A stretch of 13,426 nucleotides of DNA from a virus (taxonomy: Duplodnaviria > Heunggongvirae > Uroviricota > Caudoviricetes), in the IMG/VR virus record IMGVR_UViG_651053022_000002, positions 1 to 13,426 of that record; one strand, written 5' to 3'. Under the pieces are notes generated by a model. That model worked only from the letters and a program-made list of their open reading frames with translations, ran no database searches and was not told the origin of the DNA. Position numbers and translations under genes: made by a program. Positions 3,166 to 11,918 of this stretch are shown one piece after another; the first letter of the stretch is position 1; every line of letters starts with the position of its first letter.

Positions 3166-3480
3166 TTATTCTGGGAATAAGGTCTGAATATTCTTTTTTA
3201 TTTTATAAAAATTGCATTCAACTCCGCTAGGCTGATTATCCTGGTATGTTTCCTTGATGCTAACGGTATTGAAGGGGAGGTTGTCCTCTGGCCATTCGGC
3301 CATCCAGTAGGCAAATGCTGGGTTGCGCTTTATGAGCGCTAGCCCAGCCAGAAAGGCCGCGCGTTGCGCGCGGCTGCGTTCGGAGGCTGGCAGGCTATCG
3401 AGGTAATTGCACGCCTCCTGTTCACTCTTGACGGCGGCGGGCTTCAGATAGAAACTTATCCGTCTGGTTGGTGTCGTCAT
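3166..3480 (-). CDS. parR: ParR-like centromere-binding protein of a type II (ParMR) partition system, 104 aa
   Basis: ATG at 3480..3478 lies 4 nt after the parM stop. MTTPTRRISFYLKPAAVKSEQEACNYLDSLPASERSRAQRAAFLAGLALIKRNP... resembles plasmid R1 ParR as I recall it (RRTIAFKL...LDSIPQGERSRLNRAALTAGLALY). The ORF-track extension to 3615 overlaps parM and is rejected. Confidence 0.75.
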   Translation of the reverse strand: MTTPTRRISFYLKPAAVKSEQEACNYLDSLPASERSRAQRAAFLAGLALIKRNPAFAYWMAEWPEDNLPFNTVSIKETYQDNQPSGVECNFYKIKKNIQTLFPE

Positions 3481-3484
3481 TGGT

Positions 3485-4444
3485 TTACTCCTTGTCCATT
3501 GCGTACAGCCCATTAACCAGAGCAAACTGTGGCACCCCGTCCGCGATGAAAGTCGCATTAACTCCGCAGACTTCGCGGATAGCGGGTGCCACAATCTCCG
3601 CCCCTCCACCGACAACCATCACCCGCCCGTAACCCGAAAAAACCGCCAGCGCGCGGATCACGCGTTGTTTCAGTGTTTCTTCCTTTTCACGAATAACCGC
3701 CATCAGGCTGGCGTAATGCGCGTCATTGTGGATGTGCTGGCGCAGCCAGGCTTCATCATGGCGATGTTCGATAATGGTATTGGCGATGTGGTGACTGGTG
3801 CGCATACCGTTAGTGGCCATCACCGACAGTACGGCATCGGCCATCAGGGAAACGCCTACGTGTGGATCGCAAAACACCTGGCTGATACCTGCCAGTTGCC
3901 CTTGAACCTTTGCCACATCCAGCGTGGTTCCGCCTAAATCCACAATCAGCAGGGATTCAAACGGACTCATGTCAGCCAGTGCTTTAAAGCCAGCCGGAAT
4001 GGATTCAGGCATAACCCGCACGTTACGGATAGTGAATGCTTCGCCGTTCTGGTATTCCACCGGGCGCATAACGTTCGCTTTTTTGCGGTTGATGTTGGCC
4101 ATGTCCGGCTGTGCGTTTGTGTCGAAATACTCGCTCAGTGGCAGGGTGACAACCACATCCACCTCCTGTGGCGTGATGCCTGATTTGACCAGCGCGTGAT
4201 GAATGGCGATTACATTCACATCGCTGTACTGGTATTGCGTGTCGGTCGTCTGGACAAAGCGATCGCTAACCGGATCAAAACCATAGCGCACGCCATCAAG
4301 CATGTAGTTCGCGGGCTGCATGCCACCGAACGGCGCAGACCATTCCGACTTGAAGCTGTTCGGGCTGATGGCGTTGCGGCGTTCGCCATTCTCAGTCCAT
4401 GCCAGCTTGATGTTGGTGGAGCCGTCGTCGATACAAATTTTCAT
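3485..4444 (-). CDS. parM: ParM/StbA-like actin-type plasmid segregation ATPase, 319 aa
   Basis: MKICIDDGSTNIKLAWTENG...ISPNSFKSEW...YSDVNVIAIHHAL...VVVTLPLSEY...LIVDLGGTTLDV... carries the actin-fold phosphate motifs (IDDGSTNIK, DLGGTTLD) and closely tracks my recollection of R1 ParM. AAGGAAAA Shine-Dalgarno precedes the ATG at 4444. Confidence 0.9.
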   Translation of the reverse strand: MKICIDDGSTNIKLAWTENGERRNAISPNSFKSEWSAPFGGMQPANYMLDGVRYGFDPVSDRFVQTTDTQYQYSDVNVIAIHHALVKSGITPQEVDVVVTLPLSEYFDTNAQPDMANINRKKANVMRPVEYQNGEAFTIRNVRVMPESIPAGFKALADMSPFESLLIVDLGGTTLDVAKVQGQLAGISQVFCDPHVGVSLMADAVLSVMATNGMRTSHHIANTIIEHRHDEAWLRQHIHNDAHYASLMAVIREKEETLKQRVIRALAVFSGYGRVMVVGGGAEIVAPAIREVCGVNATFIADGVPQFALVNGLYAMDKE

Positions 4445-4462
4445 GTCGCTTTTCCTTATGTT

Positions 4463-4590
4463 GATTAATTAATCGTTTACGGGATTCTGAAATCCCGTTT
4501 TTGCCTGTTTTGTGCGCGCTTCATATATCGCTGCGCGTTTTTTGCTCATTTACGGGATTCGTAAGTCCCGTTTCTGTCTGTTTTTTGTTT
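4463..4590. repeat. Centromere- or operator-like repeats: the AT palindrome gattaattaatc plus two copies (73-bp period) of a hairpin-containing unit
   Basis: gattaattaatc at 4463..4474. Unit A: acgggatt-ctga-aatcccgt at 4479..4498 followed by T-rich sequence. Unit B: acgggatt-cgta-agtcccgt at 4552..4571, same flanks (tttacgggattc...cccgttt...ctgtttt). Unit A is in the rep-parM intergenic region; unit B is inside the rep 3' coding end. Confidence 0.7.
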
Positions 4591-7343
4591 CCACTGGTCA
4601 GGCCACCCCGCAGCAGGTCTGCTTTGCGGCTGGCGCGTTCAGTGGTTTCACTGATTCTCTGTGCGTGCTCTGCGTCGCGGATGGCGCGCAGCATGTCAGA
4701 AAGCACGGTAACGGGTGTTTTCATGGTGTTCTGGCCCTGCTGAAGTGTGGATGCCAGGCGTGCGGCGGCTTCAGGGTCTGATGCCCCCAGCTGTGCCAGA
4801 TAGCTGGCGACCGGGTTATGGCGGATCTCCGTGCTGCTTACGCCATGATTACGGCTCAGGCGCTGCCAGAGCTGCGTGATTCGGCTGTCCGGGCGGGTAT
4901 CCGGTTTGCGTACAATTTCAAATCCCTGCGGTGCAATGATGCTGCCGTCAACGTACAGACTGCCGCCCCGTAACAGGTGCTGCATCTGTTGTTCACCGAT
5001 ATGCAGGCCGAGAGATTCAGCAGACTCCCGCCATTCTTTAGCGAGTAATTCGTGGTTATCAGGCAAAGGCCGCTGCTGTTTGCGGCTCTGTGTCCAGCTC
5101 TGCATTTCATCGCTGCTGTTTTTTGCCTGTTTGTCACGAAGCGAACGCATCAGCGCCCGGCGTTCGTGTCGTTTCAGTGAGCGCATCCATTCGTTCACTT
5201 CAACGCCGTCAGGGAGCTGCGGCCACGGTGCTGGCCGTTCTTCCGGCTGTTCTGTCCCGTTGTTGTCCGTTTCCTGTACACGGGGACAGTTATTGCCACG
5301 AGTCCAAGGGGCGGCAGGGCCGCCCTGAAGGTCAAAACCATTTTCGCGGGCGCTGTCTTCCGCTTCCGGTTTACGTCTTACCAGCTTCCAGTTATCCGGA
5401 TGCGTGCACACACGGGAGGATTCCCCGATGAGTGGTGACCAGATCCCGTAAATCTGTACGCTCTGTTCGCCGTAATCGTTCAGCTCATCTGCGAGGTCGT
5501 AGGCGGTGCGAATCAGGTAGTCCTTGCGTGGAACAAGCACGCCACCCTGTTTTTCAATGTAGGTGGCAAAACACCCGGCATCGGCGGCAGCGAGTACCGC
5601 ATCCATTGCATCATCTTTCAGCCGTTGCGGGCCTTCCGGATTGCGTGCCATCTGGCTGGCAAGGCGGCGCAGTTCACGCCACACCTGACGGGAGGGGATG
5701 CCAAAGAACTGGAACTGACGGACCCGGTGAAGGCGCGCCCAGCCGATGGCGCGCTCCACGCTCTCGGCCATTGATTTTCCGGTTTCGTGGTCCACGCGTG
5801 GCTTGCCCGTTTTCGGGTCGATGCCATCCACGGCGCGGCTGTCCAGGTTCTTTCCGATGTAGGTGGCGATGTAGCTGGTTGGCGTGCCTTTTGAGCCGTC
5901 GACATACTCCACCTTAAAGCGCGGAGTAATATCATTGCCCAGCTCGTGGCGGTCTTCCTGAATGGCAATATCGCGGGTATGGGACACAATGGTGTCGATT
6001 TCTTCCGGATGTGCAAAGACCATCATATGCCAGTGCACGGTGCCGTCATGATGAGGCTCCACCGTGCGGATGCCATACCAGCGCAGGCCGTCGCGGTTCA
6101 GTTTTTTGCGGACCGCCGCAAAAAACGTGTTAACCAGGTAATCGCTGGAGTCGCGCATTGTGGCCCCGTTCCATTTGGGATTCGGATGACCGTTCTCCGT
6201 TGTGGCGTGGTATTTTGACGGGCAGGTGACAGTCAGAAACACCGCTTTGTCGCCACGGGCTTCGGCCAGAAGTTCCAGTCCCTTCATGGTGGCCATCATT
6301 TCTGCCTTACGGTGAACCGGGTTACTTACTCCCGCGTAATACACTGTCTCGAGATCAATCGTGAACCCGTCTTCATTTTCCAGCATGAAACTTTTCAGGA
6401 AATCGCGTGTTTTCTCGCGCTGTGCGCGAAACTCGCTTAACGCGTCCTGGCTCAGATAGGGTGATGTTTTTCTGGAAACCAGACAGGCGGCGCGGAGTTG
6501 TTCTTCTCTCCACTCGCAACGTAACAGCCACAGTTTGCGTTTCCACCATTCCGCACAGGTCAGGCGAAGGATTGCGCCCGGCAGCAGCTCCGTGTCCGGT
6601 TCGTTCCTCCGGTCTTTGTCTGTTGTCAGTGCGTCATAATGTGGAGGCATGGCGTGCAGGTGTAACGCCATGCGGGCCAGCATCTGATACGCCTTCAGGG
6701 TTACATCCATGGTCAGCTCGCCATCGGTCGCGCCAAAGCCATCGCAGAGTTTTTCGAAGGTGCTGCTGAACATCGCCGCCGTCATGGTGGCCAGCGTCTG
6801 TATCTGGTGTTTGTTGAGCTGCGGCAGGTAAAGCAAATCGTCCAGGCGTTCGCGTCCGGCAAGGGAGCGATAACCCGGTGTCAGCCAGCGTCCGTCAGTG
6901 CTATCCAGACGTTCGAATATTTTGCGCAGGGTTCCGCGTGCATAGCGTTCCGCCTGCCAGCTCTTTTTGCCTTTCCGGCGATCGGCTTCCTGTTTTTTGC
7001 GCAGGAAGGAGAGGTGGCGAATAAGCGGATCGCGCAGATAGGACGGCAGCAGGCGCAGCGAGGCCATGGCTTCATCCACCGCGCCACGTGCCTGTTTTCT
7101 GGCGTCTCCTGCCAGTGTGATGGTTTTGTCCTGTTTTTCCTGTGCGTCCAGGCTTTTATTAATCAGGTTGCCCAGCGGCGTGGCTGAGAACGCCGCATCA
7201 GCCATTTCCTGGCGGCGCTCGTTCTCTGCCCGGTAGGCATCCAGCCAGGAGGAAAGCGCGGATTCAGGAGCGGGGATCCCCGTTCCTTCACGCCCCACTG
7301 CGTGGCGCGGTTGTTGCCAGTCCCTGAGGTACTCTGCCGTCAT
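4521..7343 (-). CDS. Rolling-circle replication initiator (HUH endonuclease, phage P2 gpA / phiX174 gpA superfamily), 940 aa
   Basis: Contains the HUH metal-binding motif (TVHWHMMVF) and, about 50 residues later, the paired-tyrosine motif SYIATYIGKNLD (YxxxY) typical of superfamily-I rolling-circle Reps. No Walker A motif was seen, so it is not a P4 alpha-type primase-helicase. Confidence 0.85.
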   Translation of the reverse strand: MTAEYLRDWQQPRHAVGREGTGIPAPESALSSWLDAYRAENERRQEMADAAFSATPLGNLINKSLDAQEKQDKTITLAGDARKQARGAVDEAMASLRLLPSYLRDPLIRHLSFLRKKQEADRRKGKKSWQAERYARGTLRKIFERLDSTDGRWLTPGYRSLAGRERLDDLLYLPQLNKHQIQTLATMTAAMFSSTFEKLCDGFGATDGELTMDVTLKAYQMLARMALHLHAMPPHYDALTTDKDRRNEPDTELLPGAILRLTCAEWWKRKLWLLRCEWREEQLRAACLVSRKTSPYLSQDALSEFRAQREKTRDFLKSFMLENEDGFTIDLETVYYAGVSNPVHRKAEMMATMKGLELLAEARGDKAVFLTVTCPSKYHATTENGHPNPKWNGATMRDSSDYLVNTFFAAVRKKLNRDGLRWYGIRTVEPHHDGTVHWHMMVFAHPEEIDTIVSHTRDIAIQEDRHELGNDITPRFKVEYVDGSKGTPTSYIATYIGKNLDSRAVDGIDPKTGKPRVDHETGKSMAESVERAIGWARLHRVRQFQFFGIPSRQVWRELRRLASQMARNPEGPQRLKDDAMDAVLAAADAGCFATYIEKQGGVLVPRKDYLIRTAYDLADELNDYGEQSVQIYGIWSPLIGESSRVCTHPDNWKLVRRKPEAEDSARENGFDLQGGPAAPWTRGNNCPRVQETDNNGTEQPEERPAPWPQLPDGVEVNEWMRSLKRHERRALMRSLRDKQAKNSSDEMQSWTQSRKQQRPLPDNHELLAKEWRESAESLGLHIGEQQMQHLLRGGSLYVDGSIIAPQGFEIVRKPDTRPDSRITQLWQRLSRNHGVSSTEIRHNPVASYLAQLGASDPEAAARLASTLQQGQNTMKTPVTVLSDMLRAIRDAEHAQRISETTERASRKADLLRGGLTSGNKKQTETGLTNPVNEQKTRSDI

Positions 7344-7349
7344 AGTGAT

Positions 7350-7715
7350 TTACTTCGTCATGCCATTCAGGGTGTCGCGGCAGACTGTAGCCAGCCGCTG
7401 AATTTCCAGCACGGTGTCTTCTGTGTCGGCATGGCGATGTGTGATGCGGATGCTGTCGGCAATCACATCGACGATTGCAGAGGATGGGCGCTGGTAAATG
7501 CCAATAACGGACGGGGTGCCACCTTCAATGCGGTAAAGCCTGTAATTTCCCTCGTGGCTGTCAATCATGTAGCGACCATCAATAACAATCTTTCCGTCAG
7601 CGAGCTGCGGTACAGGCAGGGATTTCAGGTACATGTCATAACGATCACGCACGCGAGCGGCAAGATCACGTTCTGTATTGAGCAGGTATTCAAGAAAGTC
7701 GTTGGCGAGAATCAT
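7350..7715 (-). CDS. Hypothetical protein (121 aa) immediately upstream of rep
   Basis: ORF 7350..7715 with AAGAGGA 7 nt before the ATG; its stop lies 6 nt before the rep start, suggesting co-transcription. Confidence 0.6.
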   Translation of the reverse strand: MILANDFLEYLLNTERDLAARVRDRYDMYLKSLPVPQLADGKIVIDGRYMIDSHEGNYRLYRIEGGTPSVIGIYQRPSSAIVDVIADSIRITHRHADTEDTVLEIQRLATVCRDTLNGMTK

Positions 7716-7787
7716 TGCGGCAATCCTCTTGTTACAGATGTGCGAAGGCCTCCCGCCGCAAGGTGCAGGAAAGGCCCGGAACAGGAA

Positions 7788-8018
7788 TTAATGGAGTTTG
7801 TTTTGCTGCTGGATGAGCTGTTGAAGCTCGTGCAGATCATCCGCCAGATAGCTGAAAACAGAGGCGGAATAAATGTTTGATAGTGCGTGGCTGCGCTCAT
7901 GCAGCATATTGATGTGCATGATTTGCGCGACGCGTGATGCGCGGGAAAGTCTGCGGTTGATTTCAGTCTGGATGTGACGACGCTCCGCGATAGCGCGGTG
8001 CTGTTTGCGGTTTGCCAT
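7788..8018 (-). CDS. Small basic protein (76 aa), possible DNA-binding regulator
   Basis: ORF 7788..8018, MANRKQHRAIAERRHIQTEINRRLSRASRVAQ..., Arg/Lys-rich N-terminus; AAGGGG Shine-Dalgarno upstream. Confidence 0.5.
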   Translation of the reverse strand: MANRKQHRAIAERRHIQTEINRRLSRASRVAQIMHINMLHERSHALSNIYSASVFSYLADDLHELQQLIQQQNKLH

Positions 8019-8196
8019 GGTGTGGCCCCTTGTGTAGTAAGTTGTGAAAACTCACCATCCAGAGCTGCGAAACTGTGGGTGGCGAGACGTACGAGGTTCG
8101 CAGTACCGGCTACACAAGAACCCGGCCCGACCGAAGTCGGCCCCGTACGCCCCGCCATAATTCTGACGCGAAAAAAACGTGGCAATACAGTACGCA

Positions 8197-8218
8197 CAAA
8201 AAAACCGCTGGCGCGGTT
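8197..8218 (-). terminator. Candidate intrinsic terminator on the minus strand inside the early operon
   Basis: Minus strand reads aaccgc-gcca-gcggtt followed by TTTTTTT (plus coordinates 8203..8218 stem-loop, 8197..8202 T-tract), about 120 nt after the 8341..8640 gene. Confidence 0.5.
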
Positions 8219-8340
8219 GTGCGCTTGTGTAGTCAGCAGGCTGCGAAACCCGGCACCCGTTTTATGAGGTGCAGCGGAAATGTAACCTGACTGATTGCGG
8301 CATGGCAAGCGGTTTTTTTGTGTGTGCATGCTCTGGTTTC

Positions 8341-9126: not shown

Positions 9127-9537
9127 CTATGCGTTAAATACGGTGCACTGTGCGTCATCAATGAATGCGACTTGAGAGCGCTCTATCAGGCGGAGATTTG
9201 TCAGAATTTCTGATTCCCTTATGGGGTGAGGAGTGATCAGGTATTTATCCTGTAACCCGGCGATAATGGTGTATCGCTGTAGCTCCGAGCCAATTGTGTA
9301 AATAAGGCGTCCGGTGTTAGACAAATCCAGTCCGGTGACTGGTTGTGTTCTGAGAACCGCCAGTTCAGCATCCTGTTTTGCGATAATTTCGGCTGCTTCT
9401 GCCGTGACTCTTGCGACTATCAGTGTGTGGGTTGCGACGTCCATATGATTATTTGCTATGGCTTTTTTCGCTACTTCGTTTTCTGTCTTTGAAATTTCTT
9501 TCAGTGCTCTGATGATACCTTCTTCTTTTGCGTGCAT
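9127..9537 (-). CDS. Hypothetical protein (136 aa)
   Basis: ORF 9127..9537 with GGAGA 7 nt before the ATG; lower G+C than the rep region. Confidence 0.6.
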   Translation of the reverse strand: MHAKEEGIIRALKEISKTENEVAKKAIANNHMDVATHTLIVARVTAEAAEIIAKQDAELAVLRTQPVTGLDLSNTGRLIYTIGSELQRYTIIAGLQDKYLITPHPIRESEILTNLRLIERSQVAFIDDAQCTVFNA

Positions 9538-9630
9538 TTTTGTATCTCCGTTATTTGCGTGTGCGAATACCTCCGTTAATACGGATGGTTTTCACGTTTT
9601 CTTATTTAATTTGATGTTTTATTTGTATCG

Positions 9631-9744
9631 TTATTCACCAGTGAAAAAACGTTCAATCTTTTTTACTGAATGAATAATTCGCACAATGCCAATTGCGCAG
9701 ACCACTGAAATAATCAGAACAATCCATGACATAAATATACTCAT
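9631..9744 (-). CDS. Unlisted small hydrophobic peptide (37 aa), probably a single transmembrane helix
   Basis: My own translation: MSIFMSWIVLIISVVCAIGIVRIIHSVKKIERFFTGE. The ATG at 9744..9742 overlaps the upstream stop at 9743..9741 (ATGA coupling); GGGGA lies 7 nt upstream. Too short for the supplied ORF track. Confidence 0.4.
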   Translation of the reverse strand: MSIFMSWIVLIISVVCAIGIVRIIHSVKKIERFFTGE

Positions 9745-9983
9745 GCGATATTCCCCAGCTTATACGGTTCAATATGTTCCCCGCATTCTGCGGCACAGAT
9801 CAGCTCGGAAAGTTCGTTAAGTGCATCCAGATCATCAGCGTAAAAAGCCACGTCATACAGACTCCGGATTGCCCTGGTCAATGAGTCACGGGCTGCACGT
9901 TCAGCATGAGCGCCTGATGCACTTAAGCGAAAATAAAAACGCTCAAGTGCTTTGTTAATGAGAGTTTTATATTCTTTGCCCAT
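9741..9983 (-). CDS. Hypothetical protein (80 aa from the internal ATG)
   Basis: ORF 9741..10034 trimmed to the ATG at 9983..9981 (MGKEYKTLINKALERFYFRL...), which avoids overlap with the upstream gene. Confidence 0.5.
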   Translation of the reverse strand: MGKEYKTLINKALERFYFRLSASGAHAERAARDSLTRAIRSLYDVAFYADDLDALNELSELICAAECGEHIEPYKLGNIA

Positions 9984-9994
9984 CGCAACGCCCT

Positions 9995-10273
9995 TTAATC
10001 TGCTTTCTGAATTTCTGCTTCTGAATCCATACAAATAATTTCGATATAGGGTTCATCGCCATTAGTCTTACGTGCTTTTTCCGCTTCGCTAATGATTTCG
10101 TGTACAGTCTGGTACGGAAGTTCTACGGTCAGGCGCGTGCCGTTCAGATAAACGTAAGTAGCTGCATTTTTTTCGGATGGAACAACTCCGTCAATGGCTG
10201 ATGCGCGTAATAACAGTTCACCGCGAAAATCAATAAAACGGATAAATACACCTTGTGCATGCTCTTTGGTCAT
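9995..10273 (-). CDS. Hypothetical protein (92 aa from the internal ATG)
   Basis: ORF 9995..10333 trimmed to the ATG at 10273..10271 (MTKEHAQGVFIRFIDF...), with AGGTG upstream and a 10-nt gap to the preceding gene. Confidence 0.5.
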   Translation of the reverse strand: MTKEHAQGVFIRFIDFRGELLLRASAIDGVVPSEKNAATYVYLNGTRLTVELPYQTVHEIISEAEKARKTNGDEPYIEIICMDSEAEIQKAD

Positions 10274-10283
10274 AAAGCACCTG

Positions 10284-10634
10284 TTATAAATCAGCCTGTT
10301 TAATAAAACTTTGCCCGTGAAGCAGACGATCAACCGTGCGAAGTGCTTCGTATAATGTGAAATCCTGCCCGAACTGATTGTCGCCGTTGCTCAGTGCAAA
10401 AATGCGGTTTCCGGTAAATGGGTTGCGCTGGCATCTGTGAACCACGATTCCTGCTTTTTCAATCAGCCAAGTGTGTTCACCAATTTGTTTTACTGGGTAG
10501 CCATCCGGCGTTGCGTGTGTTTCGCTCAGGCTGTAGCGAGAGTTGCTACGTGATGCACTGGTAGCGAAACGGTTAGCATGGCGTTCCGCACCGTTGCGGA
10601 AGCGCTGCTGTGAAGAATTGCGCTGTAGTTTCAT
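10284..10634 (-). CDS. Hypothetical protein (116 aa), first gene of the leftward early operon
   Basis: ORF 10284..10634; the ATG at 10634 sits just downstream of a palindrome-containing promoter region. Confidence 0.55.
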   Translation of the reverse strand: MKLQRNSSQQRFRNGAERHANRFATSASRSNSRYSLSETHATPDGYPVKQIGEHTWLIEKAGIVVHRCQRNPFTGNRIFALSNGDNQFGQDFTLYEALRTVDRLLHGQSFIKQADL

Positions 10635-10645
10635 ATTAAAACTCT

Positions 10646-10737
10646 GTACCTTCGGTAAGGTGTACTCGTGTCACCTTGTATTGATTTGTGGTATTTTTTT
10701 TGTGTGTCTAGGACTTGGACTGGCCGGTTCAGGTCCT
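10646..10737. promoter_or_regulatory. Divergent regulatory region with two inverted repeats
   Basis: accttCGGTaaggt at 10648..10661 (5-bp arms); imperfect inverted repeat aggacttggac / gttcaggtcct at 10710..10737 (9 of 11 positions complementary, 6-bp spacer). Lies between the minus-strand early operon and the plus-strand 63-aa ORF. Confidence 0.35.
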
Positions 10738-10771
10738 GGCTTATGTTTAATTAAATTGTTAAGAGGTTTTC

Positions 10772-10963
10772 ATGTCAGAAGATAAAAAAGTTGTTAATTT
10801 GTTGAGTGAACTTAGTGCTGCTCTGGATAACATTAACCCTCCCAGGGTAAAAACGACGGGTGATAAAGACGCATTAAACACAGAGATTCATATATTACTG
10901 GCGTTAGTAACTGACAAAATTCAGCGTAAATACCCACCTGTCACACAACTGGTTGATTTTTAA
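10772..10963 (+). CDS. Small hypothetical protein (63 aa), AT-rich, the only plus-strand gene in the interior
   Basis: ORF 10772..10963, MSEDKKVVNLLSELSAALDNINPPRVKTTGDKDALNTEIHILLALVTDKIQRKYPPVTQLVDF, with AAGAGG 6 nt before the ATG; convergent with the 141-aa gene. Confidence 0.5.
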   Translation: MSEDKKVVNLLSELSAALDNINPPRVKTTGDKDALNTEIHILLALVTDKIQRKYPPVTQLVDF

Positions 10964-10969
10964 TTTGAT

Positions 10970-11392
10970 TTATGCCGGGCTGCTCCCGGCATCTTCTACC
11001 TGCCATAATGTCTCGTCACCTGATAGAGCAAAACGAAATGAGTGAAGTATATCCCCCCGAGAGAAGCTCACGGCTACAGCTGCGGGAAAGTCAAATATAA
11101 TCCCACCTTCATTTTTAAAACGATTACGCAATTGATAGGCTATCGGTTTGATTTGTGCAGGAAGAGTATCTATATCTCTTCCATTGACAACAGAATCTTT
11201 GTTTTCAAGTACTGATTTAGCGATTAGATATAGATGCCAGTAACTGGTTACAATTGTTACTCCTGTGATGTGTCGTAAATTAATTGCAATTCGTCCGTTA
11301 TTATGTTTTTCCGCAAGGTATTTCAGGTTATCAATTAATGCTTGGTCATTTTTTGAAATAGTTATTGTGAAATCTGACGTGTTTGTTTTCAT
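10970..11392 (-). CDS. Hypothetical protein (141 aa) in an AT-rich segment; candidate cargo (moron) gene
   Basis: ORF 10970..11635 trimmed to the ATG at 11392..11390, 4 nt after the upstream stop. Protein MKTNTSDFTITISKNDQALIDNLKYLAEKHNNGRIAINLRHITGVTIVTSYWHLYLIAKSVLENKDSVVNGRDIDTLPAQIKPIAYQLRNRFKNEGGIIFDFPAAVAVSFSRGDILHSFRFALSGDETLWQVEDAGSSPA. I counted 23/60 G+C in line 11101..11160 versus 41/60 in rep line 5701..5760. Confidence 0.6.
   Translation of the reverse strand: MKTNTSDFTITISKNDQALIDNLKYLAEKHNNGRIAINLRHITGVTIVTSYWHLYLIAKSVLENKDSVVNGRDIDTLPAQIKPIAYQLRNRFKNEGGIIFDFPAAVAVSFSRGDILHSFRFALSGDETLWQVEDAGSSPA
10972..10992 (+). terminator. Hairpin (8-bp stem) just after the 63-aa ORF; possible terminator overlapping the 3' end of the convergent 141-aa gene
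   Basis: atgccggg-ctgct-cccggcat at 10972..10992, 9 nt after the TAA at 10961..10963; the following tract (cttct) is only weakly U-rich. Confidence 0.3.
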
Positions 11393-11396
11393 ACGA

Positions 11397-11918
11397 TTAG
11401 TTGCCTCTGTTGTTTCTGAGTTGGTCCAGTTTTGAGCTTCTGCCTGTATAAACTCGCTTACCGTTAATGGTCTGGCAGTCTTCTTTATTAGCTGGAGAGA
11501 ACTTCCTTTTCTGGCGGTCATACGTCCAGTAACTTTTCCAGTTGTGCCATTCTGGGGGCTCGTGCTCTGGTAGCTCATCAGCCAACTTGTCCCACTCTTT
11601 GGCGTTAAACCACCATACTCCGTCTGAGTTTTCATCTTCCGGGTTTGTGCGCGTCTTGTGTCCCGGCATTTGACCGCGATGAATGGCTACGCGCAGTGCA
11701 GATTTTGTTAGCCCAATATATGCCGCGCCTTTTTCCAGAGAGCAAAGCCCGGCGATCGGACCATCCAGCCGCAAAGTCGCTCCTTTTTTGTAGGAACGCT
11801 TTTTCTTGTTTTCTTCGTGCTCGTCGTCGTTGGCGGCATCAATGGATCCGCTGAGTGCGTCACTTTCCTGAAGTGGTTGGTGGTCAGATAACTCTTTATC
11901 GGCAATGAAGTCCCGCAT
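11397..11918 (-). CDS. Excisionase/Cox-like HTH protein (173 aa) with an acidic N-terminus, divergent from the repressor
   Basis: ORF 11397..11918 with AAGAGGA before the ATG. The segment GAAYIGLTKSALRVAIHRGQMPGHK...GVWWFNAKEWDKL looks like an Xis/AlpA/MerR-type HTH with wing; its position mirrors cox/apl in P2/186-type switches. Confidence 0.6.
   Translation of the reverse strand: MRDFIADKELSDHQPLQESDALSGSIDAANDDEHEENKKKRSYKKGATLRLDGPIAGLCSLEKGAAYIGLTKSALRVAIHRGQMPGHKTRTNPEDENSDGVWWFNAKEWDKLADELPEHEPPEWHNWKSYWTYDRQKRKFSPANKEDCQTINGKRVYTGRSSKLDQLRNNRGN

Follow-up and report, generated by a model that had tools for sequence, protein, structure and literature searches.

The 940-amino-acid Rep protein encoded in the 13,426-nucleotide stretch of DNA analyzed here (the window) is very probably the gpA-type HUH rolling-circle initiator encoded by a prophage of the P88-like group (Xuanwuvirus, Peduoviridae), and it belongs to a subfamily for which 940 amino acids is the normal architecture. 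The protein is already known, being routinely annotated as the replication-nicking enzyme or endonuclease of P88-like phages. Its extra length relative to P2 A has three sources, namely, an insert near the N terminus, a complete C-terminal domain, and a helical extension. Rep is therefore longer than P2 A because its subfamily carries extra N- and C-terminal pieces and not because of a new domain or origin.

The rep gene occupies positions 4521 to 7343 on the minus strand, running from an ATG start through 940 codons to a stop. The Pfam profile PF05840 (Phage_GPA) matched residues 179 to 503 only, the catalytic region (positions 5835 to 6809, minus strand), scoring 437 bits (cut-off, 31.4; E = 4.9e-131), and PHROG 91, "nicking at origin of replication," a profile of 852 positions, aligned to residues 4 to 940 (E = 9.5e-275). 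The whole protein had no match in NCBIfam, and a search of PDB sequences with the family profile returned nothing up to an E value of 1. In our alignments the HUH motif, H437-W438-H439 (6027 to 6035, minus strand), was invariant across P2, 186, and 30 relatives, and the YxxxY motif formed by Y491 and Y495 (5859 to 5873, minus strand) aligned to Y450 and Y454 of P2, the catalytic tyrosine pair of its A protein. If it works like this homologue, Rep would nick the phage's own ori via Y491 and Y495, with a metal held by H437 and H439. Initiators of this family nick at a specific site, become covalently attached to the 5' end, and act in cis. The full-length AlphaFold2 (AF2) model was weak (mean pLDDT, 60.7) and gave weak matches (E values of 0.05 to 0.2) to the Helitron transposase 7lcc and the origin-binding domain of AAV2 Rep, in a part modeled with moderate confidence. 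The papers describing P88 and Citrobacter phiSM make no statement on Rep architecture; the nick site, the action in cis, and the role of the tail would be as in P2 and 186, from which we carry them over by analogy.

A first-pass annotation of this DNA had called Rep unusually long for a P2 gpA-type initiator and had placed the HUH and YxxxY motifs in the middle of the protein. The 940-codon reading frame and the central motifs were confirmed, with approximately 430 residues before them and 445 after, and the size of about 760 amino acids given for P2 A was correct (761 amino acids; 2286 nucleotides in NC_001895); 186 A has 694. What did not hold was that the length is unusual, as it recurs in P88 and in identical phage records and is the commonest class among close relatives. 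Clusters of proteins of 940 to 946 amino acids held 707, 16,881, and 3,025 members, or approximately 20,000 sequences in all, and the more distant gpA proteins retrieved by profile search ranged from 721 to 943 amino acids. The gene was identical at the nucleotide level to those of Escherichia phages vB_EcoM-569R5 and 705R2 (100%), was 97.9% identical to P88 gp16, and was present in approximately one-quarter of complete Escherichia coli genomes, in P88-like (P2-family) prophages. These relatives, together with the family profiles, showed the length to be typical of a known gpA subfamily. As originally posed, the matter of the 940-residue length is thus of little consequence, since it is typical of P88-like phages.

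The first source of extra length is an insert of approximately 65 amino acids relative to P2 and 186, placed by alignment at residues ~22 to 98 (7050 to 7280, minus strand) or, more narrowly, ~25 to 97. It was common to all 30 of 30 close relatives and was also found in distant relatives of 857 to 868 amino acids, whereas P2 and 186 do not have it. AF2 predicted two long helices there, residues 29 to 53 and 56 to 97, with a pLDDT of 50 to 73. The insert is variable and exists as at least two alleles: P0020, P0022, and P0027 were approximately 20% identical within it and approximately 97% identical in the core. It probably represents a variable helical hairpin that follows a conserved N-terminal W-x-x-P-R motif. 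Separate Pfam searches of residues 1 to 178, 504 to 699, and 700 to 940 (E values up to 10) yielded only subthreshold noise (Death domain, 13.6 bits; PSK_trans_fac, 18.5 bits).

The second source is a conserved gpA C-terminal domain at residues ~757 to 865 (4749 to 5075, minus strand), which carries the motifs LLRGxxLxxxG and RNHGxxxxEIRxNPVxxY. Profile searches placed it at the C-terminal end of gpA homologues of 841 to 868 amino acids, and it recurs in gpA proteins drawn from many clusters built at 50% identity; P2 aligns to its first half only. A tail-only AF2 model reached a pLDDT of 87.4, and pN/pS across the domain was 0.04 to 0.10. These data indicate a conserved domain that is predicted to be folded and is under purifying selection. 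Neither Pfam nor NCBIfam has a family for residues 504 to 940, and a structure search with the tail returned no fold analogue. When homologues of the isolated tail were sought by a word-indexed search, the matches were only fragments of this gene. One further candidate, P0129, a 373-amino-acid protein with a terminase domain, was set aside as an assembly or fusion artifact. The lack of a family or structural analogue, and the position of the tail at the edge of a known defense hotspot (PMC9122126), would be compatible with a novel enzymatic or defense-related domain acquired specifically by P88-like phages. We regard that as extremely improbable, given that the domain is spread over many gpA clusters, that its first half is present in P2, and that its approximately 110 residues include no catalytic-looking invariant residues; the only positions conserved at 90% or more are Rep L790, G793, and G808, which are numbered L84, G87, and G102 in the tail fragment. 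The suggestion in the first-pass annotation of an added domain is thus upheld insofar as Rep has sequence that P2 and 186 do not, with a folded domain within it, but that domain was not added in this phage, being shared across gpA-family proteins. Likewise, the structure prediction proposed for the flanking regions produced a well-modeled C-terminal domain (pLDDT of 87), while domain prediction assigned it no family. This shared C-terminal domain may serve the replisome as a module that docks protein or DNA. It lies outside the Pfam model, no structural analogue was found for it, and it offers a defined target for studies of replisome recruitment by P2-family initiators.

Between the catalytic region and this domain lies the ori core, GCCGCCCCTTGGACTCGTGGCAATAACTGTCCC (5283 to 5315, minus strand; codons 677 to 688, AAPWTRGNNCP), identified by homology to the rep_origin annotations of P2 and 186. 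The annotated nick positions of both phages align to window position 5305. We infer that the ori and its nick site are inside the initiator's own coding sequence, with the nick expected near 5305. The ori core was identical in nine loci with flanks that were just 40 to 80% identical, and the weakest matches in E. coli genomes spanned the ori-core island only. The sequence is housed in a predicted disordered linker (residues 660 to 706; 5226 to 5366, minus strand), for which AF2 gave a pLDDT of 26 to 42 and no secondary structure. We propose that this placement allows constraint at the DNA level and constraint on the protein to coexist without conflict. The earlier idea of an in-gene origin is therefore supported by homology with P2 and 186, but at this conserved linker rather than in the C-terminal extension or the repeat unit B discussed below.

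The ori core also marks a boundary of exchange. Five independent mosaic junctions abut it, with locus L007 diverging on the left and L009, L011, L012, and L013 diverging on the right within 1 to 10 nucleotides, and both the Rep tail type and the downstream cargo vary among loci. The region between gpA and gpQ is a known defense and cargo hotspot of P2-family phages (PMC9122126). The invariance of the ori core, together with the five junctions abutting it, indicates that the third of rep that follows the ori moves along with the gpA-gpQ cargo, such that everything downstream of the ori, from the Rep tail through the cargo to the portal gene, is very probably swapped between phages as a mosaic module. 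It is conceivable, though somewhat short of an even chance, that the ori nick region is the preferred left crossover of the hotspot, which would then be bounded by two phage DNA-break sites, the ori nick and cos. If this is true, the post-ori third would be swapped together with par, defense, or toxin-antitoxin genes, which would explain both how gpA lengths come to range from approximately 760 to 946 amino acids although the core hardly varies and why reading frames that precede the par cassette run into the par leader. The invariant ori core marks the exact boundary at which exchange begins, and this refines the map of the hotspot (PMC9122126), the variable region of which starts inside gene A. 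It also suggests a link between nicking and recombination.

The third source of length is a helical C-terminal extension under looser constraint (residues 866 to 919; 4587 to 4748, minus strand), which together with the last 21 codons amounts to approximately 75 amino acids. AF2 placed a helix at residues 877 to 916 (pLDDT, 50 to 64), and pN/pS was 0.35 to 0.86 with few changes; since so few substitutions resolve selection poorly, residues 866 to 918 may either have a function or evolve almost neutrally. The extension is absent from Rep variants of 761 to 879 amino acids but present in the Hafnia relative P0083, and its retention there at 62% identity argues for more than accident. The last 21 codons and the stop (4521 to 4586, minus strand) come from the leader of the par cassette. 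Of the 21 residues encoded, 17 (81%) are also found at the C terminus of an unrelated 155-amino-acid open reading frame (ORF) in L008, where the DNA is approximately 95% identical, and the shared DNA runs from AAAAACAGACA to parM whatever lies upstream, following the 155-amino-acid ORF in L008. In L007 a 1-nucleotide deletion shifts the frame and yields a Rep of 925 amino acids. We propose that Rep has these 21 codons solely because its reading frame enters the parM/parR leader before meeting any stop. A derivation of the extension from the 155- or 143-amino-acid ORFs that follow shorter Rep variants was rejected, since the similarity is confined to the 21 C-terminal residues that the par leader encodes.

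These features also bear on whether the 940-codon ORF is a fusion, in which a Rep of approximately 870 amino acids acquired, in frame, a small and once separate gene that begins at M874 (MKTPVTVLSDMLRAIRD...) and may still be expressed alone. There is an in-frame ATG at codon 874, at which gene callers begin fragments in other assemblies (P0168 and P0174); an overlapping ORF of 138 to 155 amino acids occupies the same position after shorter Rep variants; and selection is looser past residue 860. However, no variant was found in which the segment forms a complete gene of its own beside a shorter, intact Rep, the Hafnia relative retains the fused form, no convincing Shine-Dalgarno sequence precedes M874, and, apart from the par-leader tail, the extension has no homology to the ORFs downstream of short variants. 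We therefore consider a fusion unlikely and retain the interpretation of a single reading frame with a helical extension that ends in the par leader.

Downstream of rep lie genes for ParM, an actin-like segregation ATPase of 319 amino acids that is also annotated in P88 (3485 to 4444, minus strand; PF06406, E = 3e-82; PF21523, E = 1e-68), and for a ParR/StbB-type partition adaptor of 104 amino acids (3166 to 3480, minus strand; PF10784, E = 2e-28). As the first-pass annotation had noted, repeat unit B lies in the region encoding the Rep C terminus: its first copy, a 42-nucleotide direct repeat with the palindrome ACGGGA-N8-TCCCGT, is in the last codons of rep (4546 to 4587), and the second, 83% identical and 73 nucleotides away, is in the spacer between rep and parM (4473 to 4514). 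Terminator-like matches at the two repeat hairpins were rejected as Rep terminators, since they lie on the plus strand, antisense to rep and parM. A promoter scan of positions 4300 to 5400 detected no sigma-70-like site. In R1-type ParMRC systems, the parC centromere/operator sites lie immediately upstream of parM. The two spaced repeats, each with a palindrome of 6-bp arms, the ParM/ParR cassette downstream, and the deposition of a P88-like genome as a 34.5-kb circular "plasmid," which makes an extrachromosomal state plausible, could together be taken to mean that the extension with its repeat B acts as another in-gene origin or as a set of iterons, bound by the Rep tail and used, for instance, in plasmid-type (theta) maintenance. 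This is very unlikely, as the repeats are inherited with parMR and in L008 follow the unrelated ORF and a different Rep tail, Rep variants of 761 to 879 amino acids do not have them yet keep the ori core, they occupy the parC position of R1-type systems directly upstream of parM, and there are just two copies. Repeat B is instead a candidate parC or regulatory site that moves with parMR rather than with Rep.

Compared with named systems, Rep was 33% identical over the whole core to P2 A (NP_046795, 761 amino acids), which has the same motifs (H399-W-H and Y450/Y454). The P2 ori is likewise inside the gene, at codons just ahead of N-N-C, and its nick region, GCGCCTCGGAGTCCTGTCAATAACTG, is homologous to GCCCCTTGGACTCGTGGCAATAACTG in the window. 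Unlike Rep, P2 A has neither the N-terminal insert nor the helical extension, its C-terminal domain stops after the first half, and orf91, tin, and old lie downstream of it in place of parM and parR. The 186 A protein (NP_052289, 694 amino acids) shares 34% identity and the same motifs, with an in-gene ori placed by similarity to P2, but it stops shortly past the ori and has no C-terminal domain or N-terminal insert. The cassette resembles R1-type ParMRC in its ParM (PF06406/PF21523), its ParR/StbB-family adaptor (PF10784), and the repeated sites directly upstream of parM. R1 parC consists of two blocks of five 11-bp iterons, whereas the window has only two 42-nucleotide units with internal palindromes, the first of which is translated as the end of Rep. 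P88 gp16 (YP_009113059, Xuanwuvirus), annotated as a replication endonuclease, has 940 amino acids and is followed by ParM and a partition protein in the same order as in the window. The window is thus a P88-type prophage or phage, with essentially no difference from P88.

The Rep gene is a 940-codon open reading frame (ORF) on the minus strand (4521 to 7343), whose ATG start lies 6 nt past the stop codon of an upstream 121-codon ORF (7350 to 7715, minus strand). The Pfam Phage_GPA profile matched residues 179 to 503 (E value, 5e-131), and PHROG 91 ("nicking at origin of replication"), a profile of 852 positions, aligned to residues 4 to 940. The HUH motif, H437-W-H439 (6027 to 6035, minus strand), and the tyrosine pair, Y491/Y495 (5859 to 5873, minus strand), lie in the middle of the protein, as the first-pass annotation had stated. 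Together, the profiles and motifs establish membership of the gpA family. The nucleotide sequence of the gene shows 100% identity to those of the Escherichia phages vB_EcoM-569R5 and vB_EcoM-705R2 and of a P88-like prophage record, and 97.9% identity to that of gp16, the 940-residue "replication endonuclease" of phage P88 (genus Xuanwuvirus, Peduoviridae). A 630-nt segment around the origin in the Rep gene was present in 1,568 of 5,426 complete Escherichia coli genomes and was matched over at least 80% of its length in 1,359 of these. A PDB sequence search with the family profile found no solved structure for the Rep family. The records of phages 520873 (NC_049344) and 503458 (NC_049341) divide the Rep gene into three or four coding sequences, with names including "DNA replication domain protein," "nicking at origin," and "replication endonuclease"; these probably reflect frameshift sequencing errors or pseudogenes and no real split.

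In P2 and 186, the annotated nicks (nt 29892 and nt 28576) map to codons 620 and 611 of gene A, within the sequences CTCGGAGTCC and TTCTGTCAATAACTG, respectively. A homologous 33-nt core, GCCGCCCCTTGGACTCGTGGCAATAACTGTCCC, is located at 5283 to 5315 (minus strand), where it lies within codons 677 to 688 (AAPWTRGNNCP) and places the aligned nick position at 5305. This core is identical in nine loci in which the flanking gene sequence is only 40 to 80% identical. Furthermore, the weakest matches in the E. coli genome search reached query positions 286 to 335 only, corresponding to the origin island, and lie in genes annotated as "replication endonuclease" that are otherwise dissimilar. At the sequence level, the homology and invariance of the core are clear, and with the origin-only matches they argue that the in-gene origin is real, P2 type, and constrained as DNA. 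An origin within the gene had been proposed to explain the extra length of Rep; the origin exists, but it is not new and lies approximately 700 nt upstream of repeat B, outside the extra sequence. By analogy with P2 and 186, Y491/Y495 would nick at about 5305, and covalent attachment, rolling-circle replication, and cis action of Rep would be expected.

Comparison with related loci indicates that the variable region starts inside gene A, at the origin. In locus L007 (a contig of Logan ERR2749070), the early region resembles that of 186 (CI, CP76, Fil, DksA-like, and Dam methylase) and the Rep core is approximately 50% identical to that of the window; there follow a tail that is 98% identical and the same parMR cassette, and divergence sets in directly left of the origin core. 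L007 is a chimeric phage, its 186-like immunity/early region being joined at the origin to parMR and a Rep tail of the P88 type. Loci L009 (830 residues, no par), L011 (879 residues, Fic/antitoxin cargo), L012 (829 residues), and L013 (761 residues, Salmonella type) have cores 70 to 98% identical to that of the window and diverge 1 to 10 nt right of the origin core; in L008, the break comes later, near codon 735. Five junctions at the origin in eight comparisons are suggestive, this being a count and not a statistical test, and the core may simply be the one stretch of identity on which homologous recombination could act. In the gpA-gpQ region, which adjoins cos, Rousset et al. (2022; PMC9122126) described a hotspot for cargo and defence genes, and they proposed one recombination event at the cos ends and a second, homologous one. 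Each of the shorter Rep variants (761 to 879 residues) is accompanied by an ORF of 138 to 155 codons overlapping the Rep stop codon (L008, 6628 to 7095; L009, 6490 to 6921; L011, 5637 to 6092; L012, 5089 to 5505; L013, 5279 to 5722). A comparison of two of these ORFs found them to be unrelated, and the 940-residue form lacks such an ORF. The first approximately 100 Rep codons (7050 to 7343) form a second mosaic segment, in which identity to L009 and L011 is 44 to 55% over the first 300 nt, approximately 70 to 74% over nt 301 to 400, and 91 to 93% or more from about nt 400; its alleles are approximately 20% identical at the protein level.

Elsewhere in the window, GC content is 0.38 to 0.44 at 9500 to 11500 versus 0.52 to 0.59 in the replication region, and this low-GC stretch is possibly foreign cargo or an immunity region. 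A 205-codon ORF two genes upstream of Rep (7712 to 8329, minus strand) matched the Ash protein family (PF10554) at 26 bits, exactly the Pfam cutoff.

Directly after Rep, this integrase-bearing P2-family phage carries a ParM/ParR (type II partition) cassette (3166 to 4444, minus strand) consisting of ParM (3485 to 4444; PF06406 and PF21523) and a ParR/StbB-type protein (3166 to 3480; PF10784). The 34,461-bp pZ1323PEC0009-2 (NZ_CP148288.1), deposited as a circular "plasmid," is a P88-like genome with a 946-residue Rep and ParM/ParR; the cassette and this circular record hint that the carrier state could be extrachromosomal or that of a phage-plasmid. The two copies of the 42-nt repeat B (4546 to 4587 and 4473 to 4514; 83% identity, 73-nt spacing) both contain the 20-nt palindrome ACGGGA-N8-TCCCGT. 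Copy 1 encodes the last residues of Rep, and copy 2 falls within the 76 nt that separate Rep from parM. L008 encodes an 876-residue Rep with a different tail, then an unrelated 155-codon ORF, and then parM/parR of the window's type. The 155-codon ORF ends in EKQTKTGFTNPVNEQKTRRDI, a 17/21 match to the last residues of Rep, and the shared DNA begins exactly at AAAAACAGACA (window position approximately 4585) and continues into parM irrespective of the upstream sequence. In L007, a 1-nt deletion in an A-run shifts the frame, so that its 925-residue Rep ends differently. The final 21 codons of the window's Rep thus derive from the par leader, which is open in this frame by chance. Repeat B thus goes with parMR, and from their position we infer that the copies are candidate parC/operator sites. 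The repeat hairpins resemble terminators on the antisense strand only, no sigma-70-like promoter was detected in a scan of 4300 to 5400, and the 171-nt leader folds better than shuffled sequences (z = -3.0). Repeat B may be bound by ParR, act as an RNA element, or do both. In copy 2 of L007 and P884B11, ACGGGA...TCCCGT is changed to GCGGGA...TCCTGT, and pairing (G-U) is kept only in the sense-strand RNA.

Gene A of P2 (2286 nt) encodes 761 residues, in agreement with the length of about 760 that the first-pass annotation gave, and that of 186 encodes 694, so that Rep is indeed longer, by 179 to 246 residues. It is not unusually long, however. Close relatives form a full-length class of 940 to 946 residues (clusters of 707, 16,881, and 3,025 sequences) and further classes of 910 to 916, 870 to 879, 829 to 835, and 761 to 765 residues, and full-length gpA homologues in other 50%-identity clusters span 721 to 943 residues, many being 840 to 870. 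A length of 940 residues is thus at the long end, yet no other form is as common in E. coli, and P2 and 186 stand at the short end. Such a length is usual in a gpA subfamily that is already known and annotated.

The architecture of Rep was derived from a three-way alignment with P2 A and 186 A (33 to 34% identity), a 23-sequence alignment, and AF2 models, which together establish the domain boundaries. Residues 1 to 21 carry a conserved W-x-x-P-R-x-A motif common to P2 and 186. An insert at residues ~22 to 98, absent from both, is predicted to form two long helices (29 to 53 and 56 to 97; pLDDT, 50 to 73); it was found in 30/30 close relatives and in distant homologues of 857 to 868 residues, and at least two alleles, approximately 20% identical, occur on a core approximately 97% identical. 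The core common to P2 and 186 (residues ~100 to 655) includes the HUH/Tyr region and a confident helical domain (100 to 290; pLDDT, >80). Residues 660 to 706, the stretch that encodes the origin, are predicted to be disordered (pLDDT, 26 to 42). Residues ~757 to 865 are modelled as a compact domain of two helices, a three-stranded sheet, and three helices (tail-only model pLDDT, 87.4), with the motifs LLRGxxLxxxG and RNHGxxxxEIRxNPVxxY, and residues 866 to 940 as a long helix (877 to 916) and a disordered end. Residues 691 to 860 are under purifying selection (pN/pS, 0.04 to 0.10); constraint on 866 to 940 is looser (0.35 to 0.86, with few changes). Our guess for the C-terminal domain is that it is a docking site for DNA or for a partner in the replisome.

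The proposal of an added domain was correct in that the tail contains a folded domain, but when 1.8 billion representatives were searched with a profile, it was found at the C terminus of gpA homologues from many clusters, so it is not new. Rep is thus an ordinary member of its subfamily, in which neither domain nor origin is novel; of modest interest are the conserved C-terminal domain, the read-in of the ORF to the par leader, and the origin-bounded mosaic exchange. The P2 A alignment reaches only the first half of the C-terminal domain, and 186 A lacks it.
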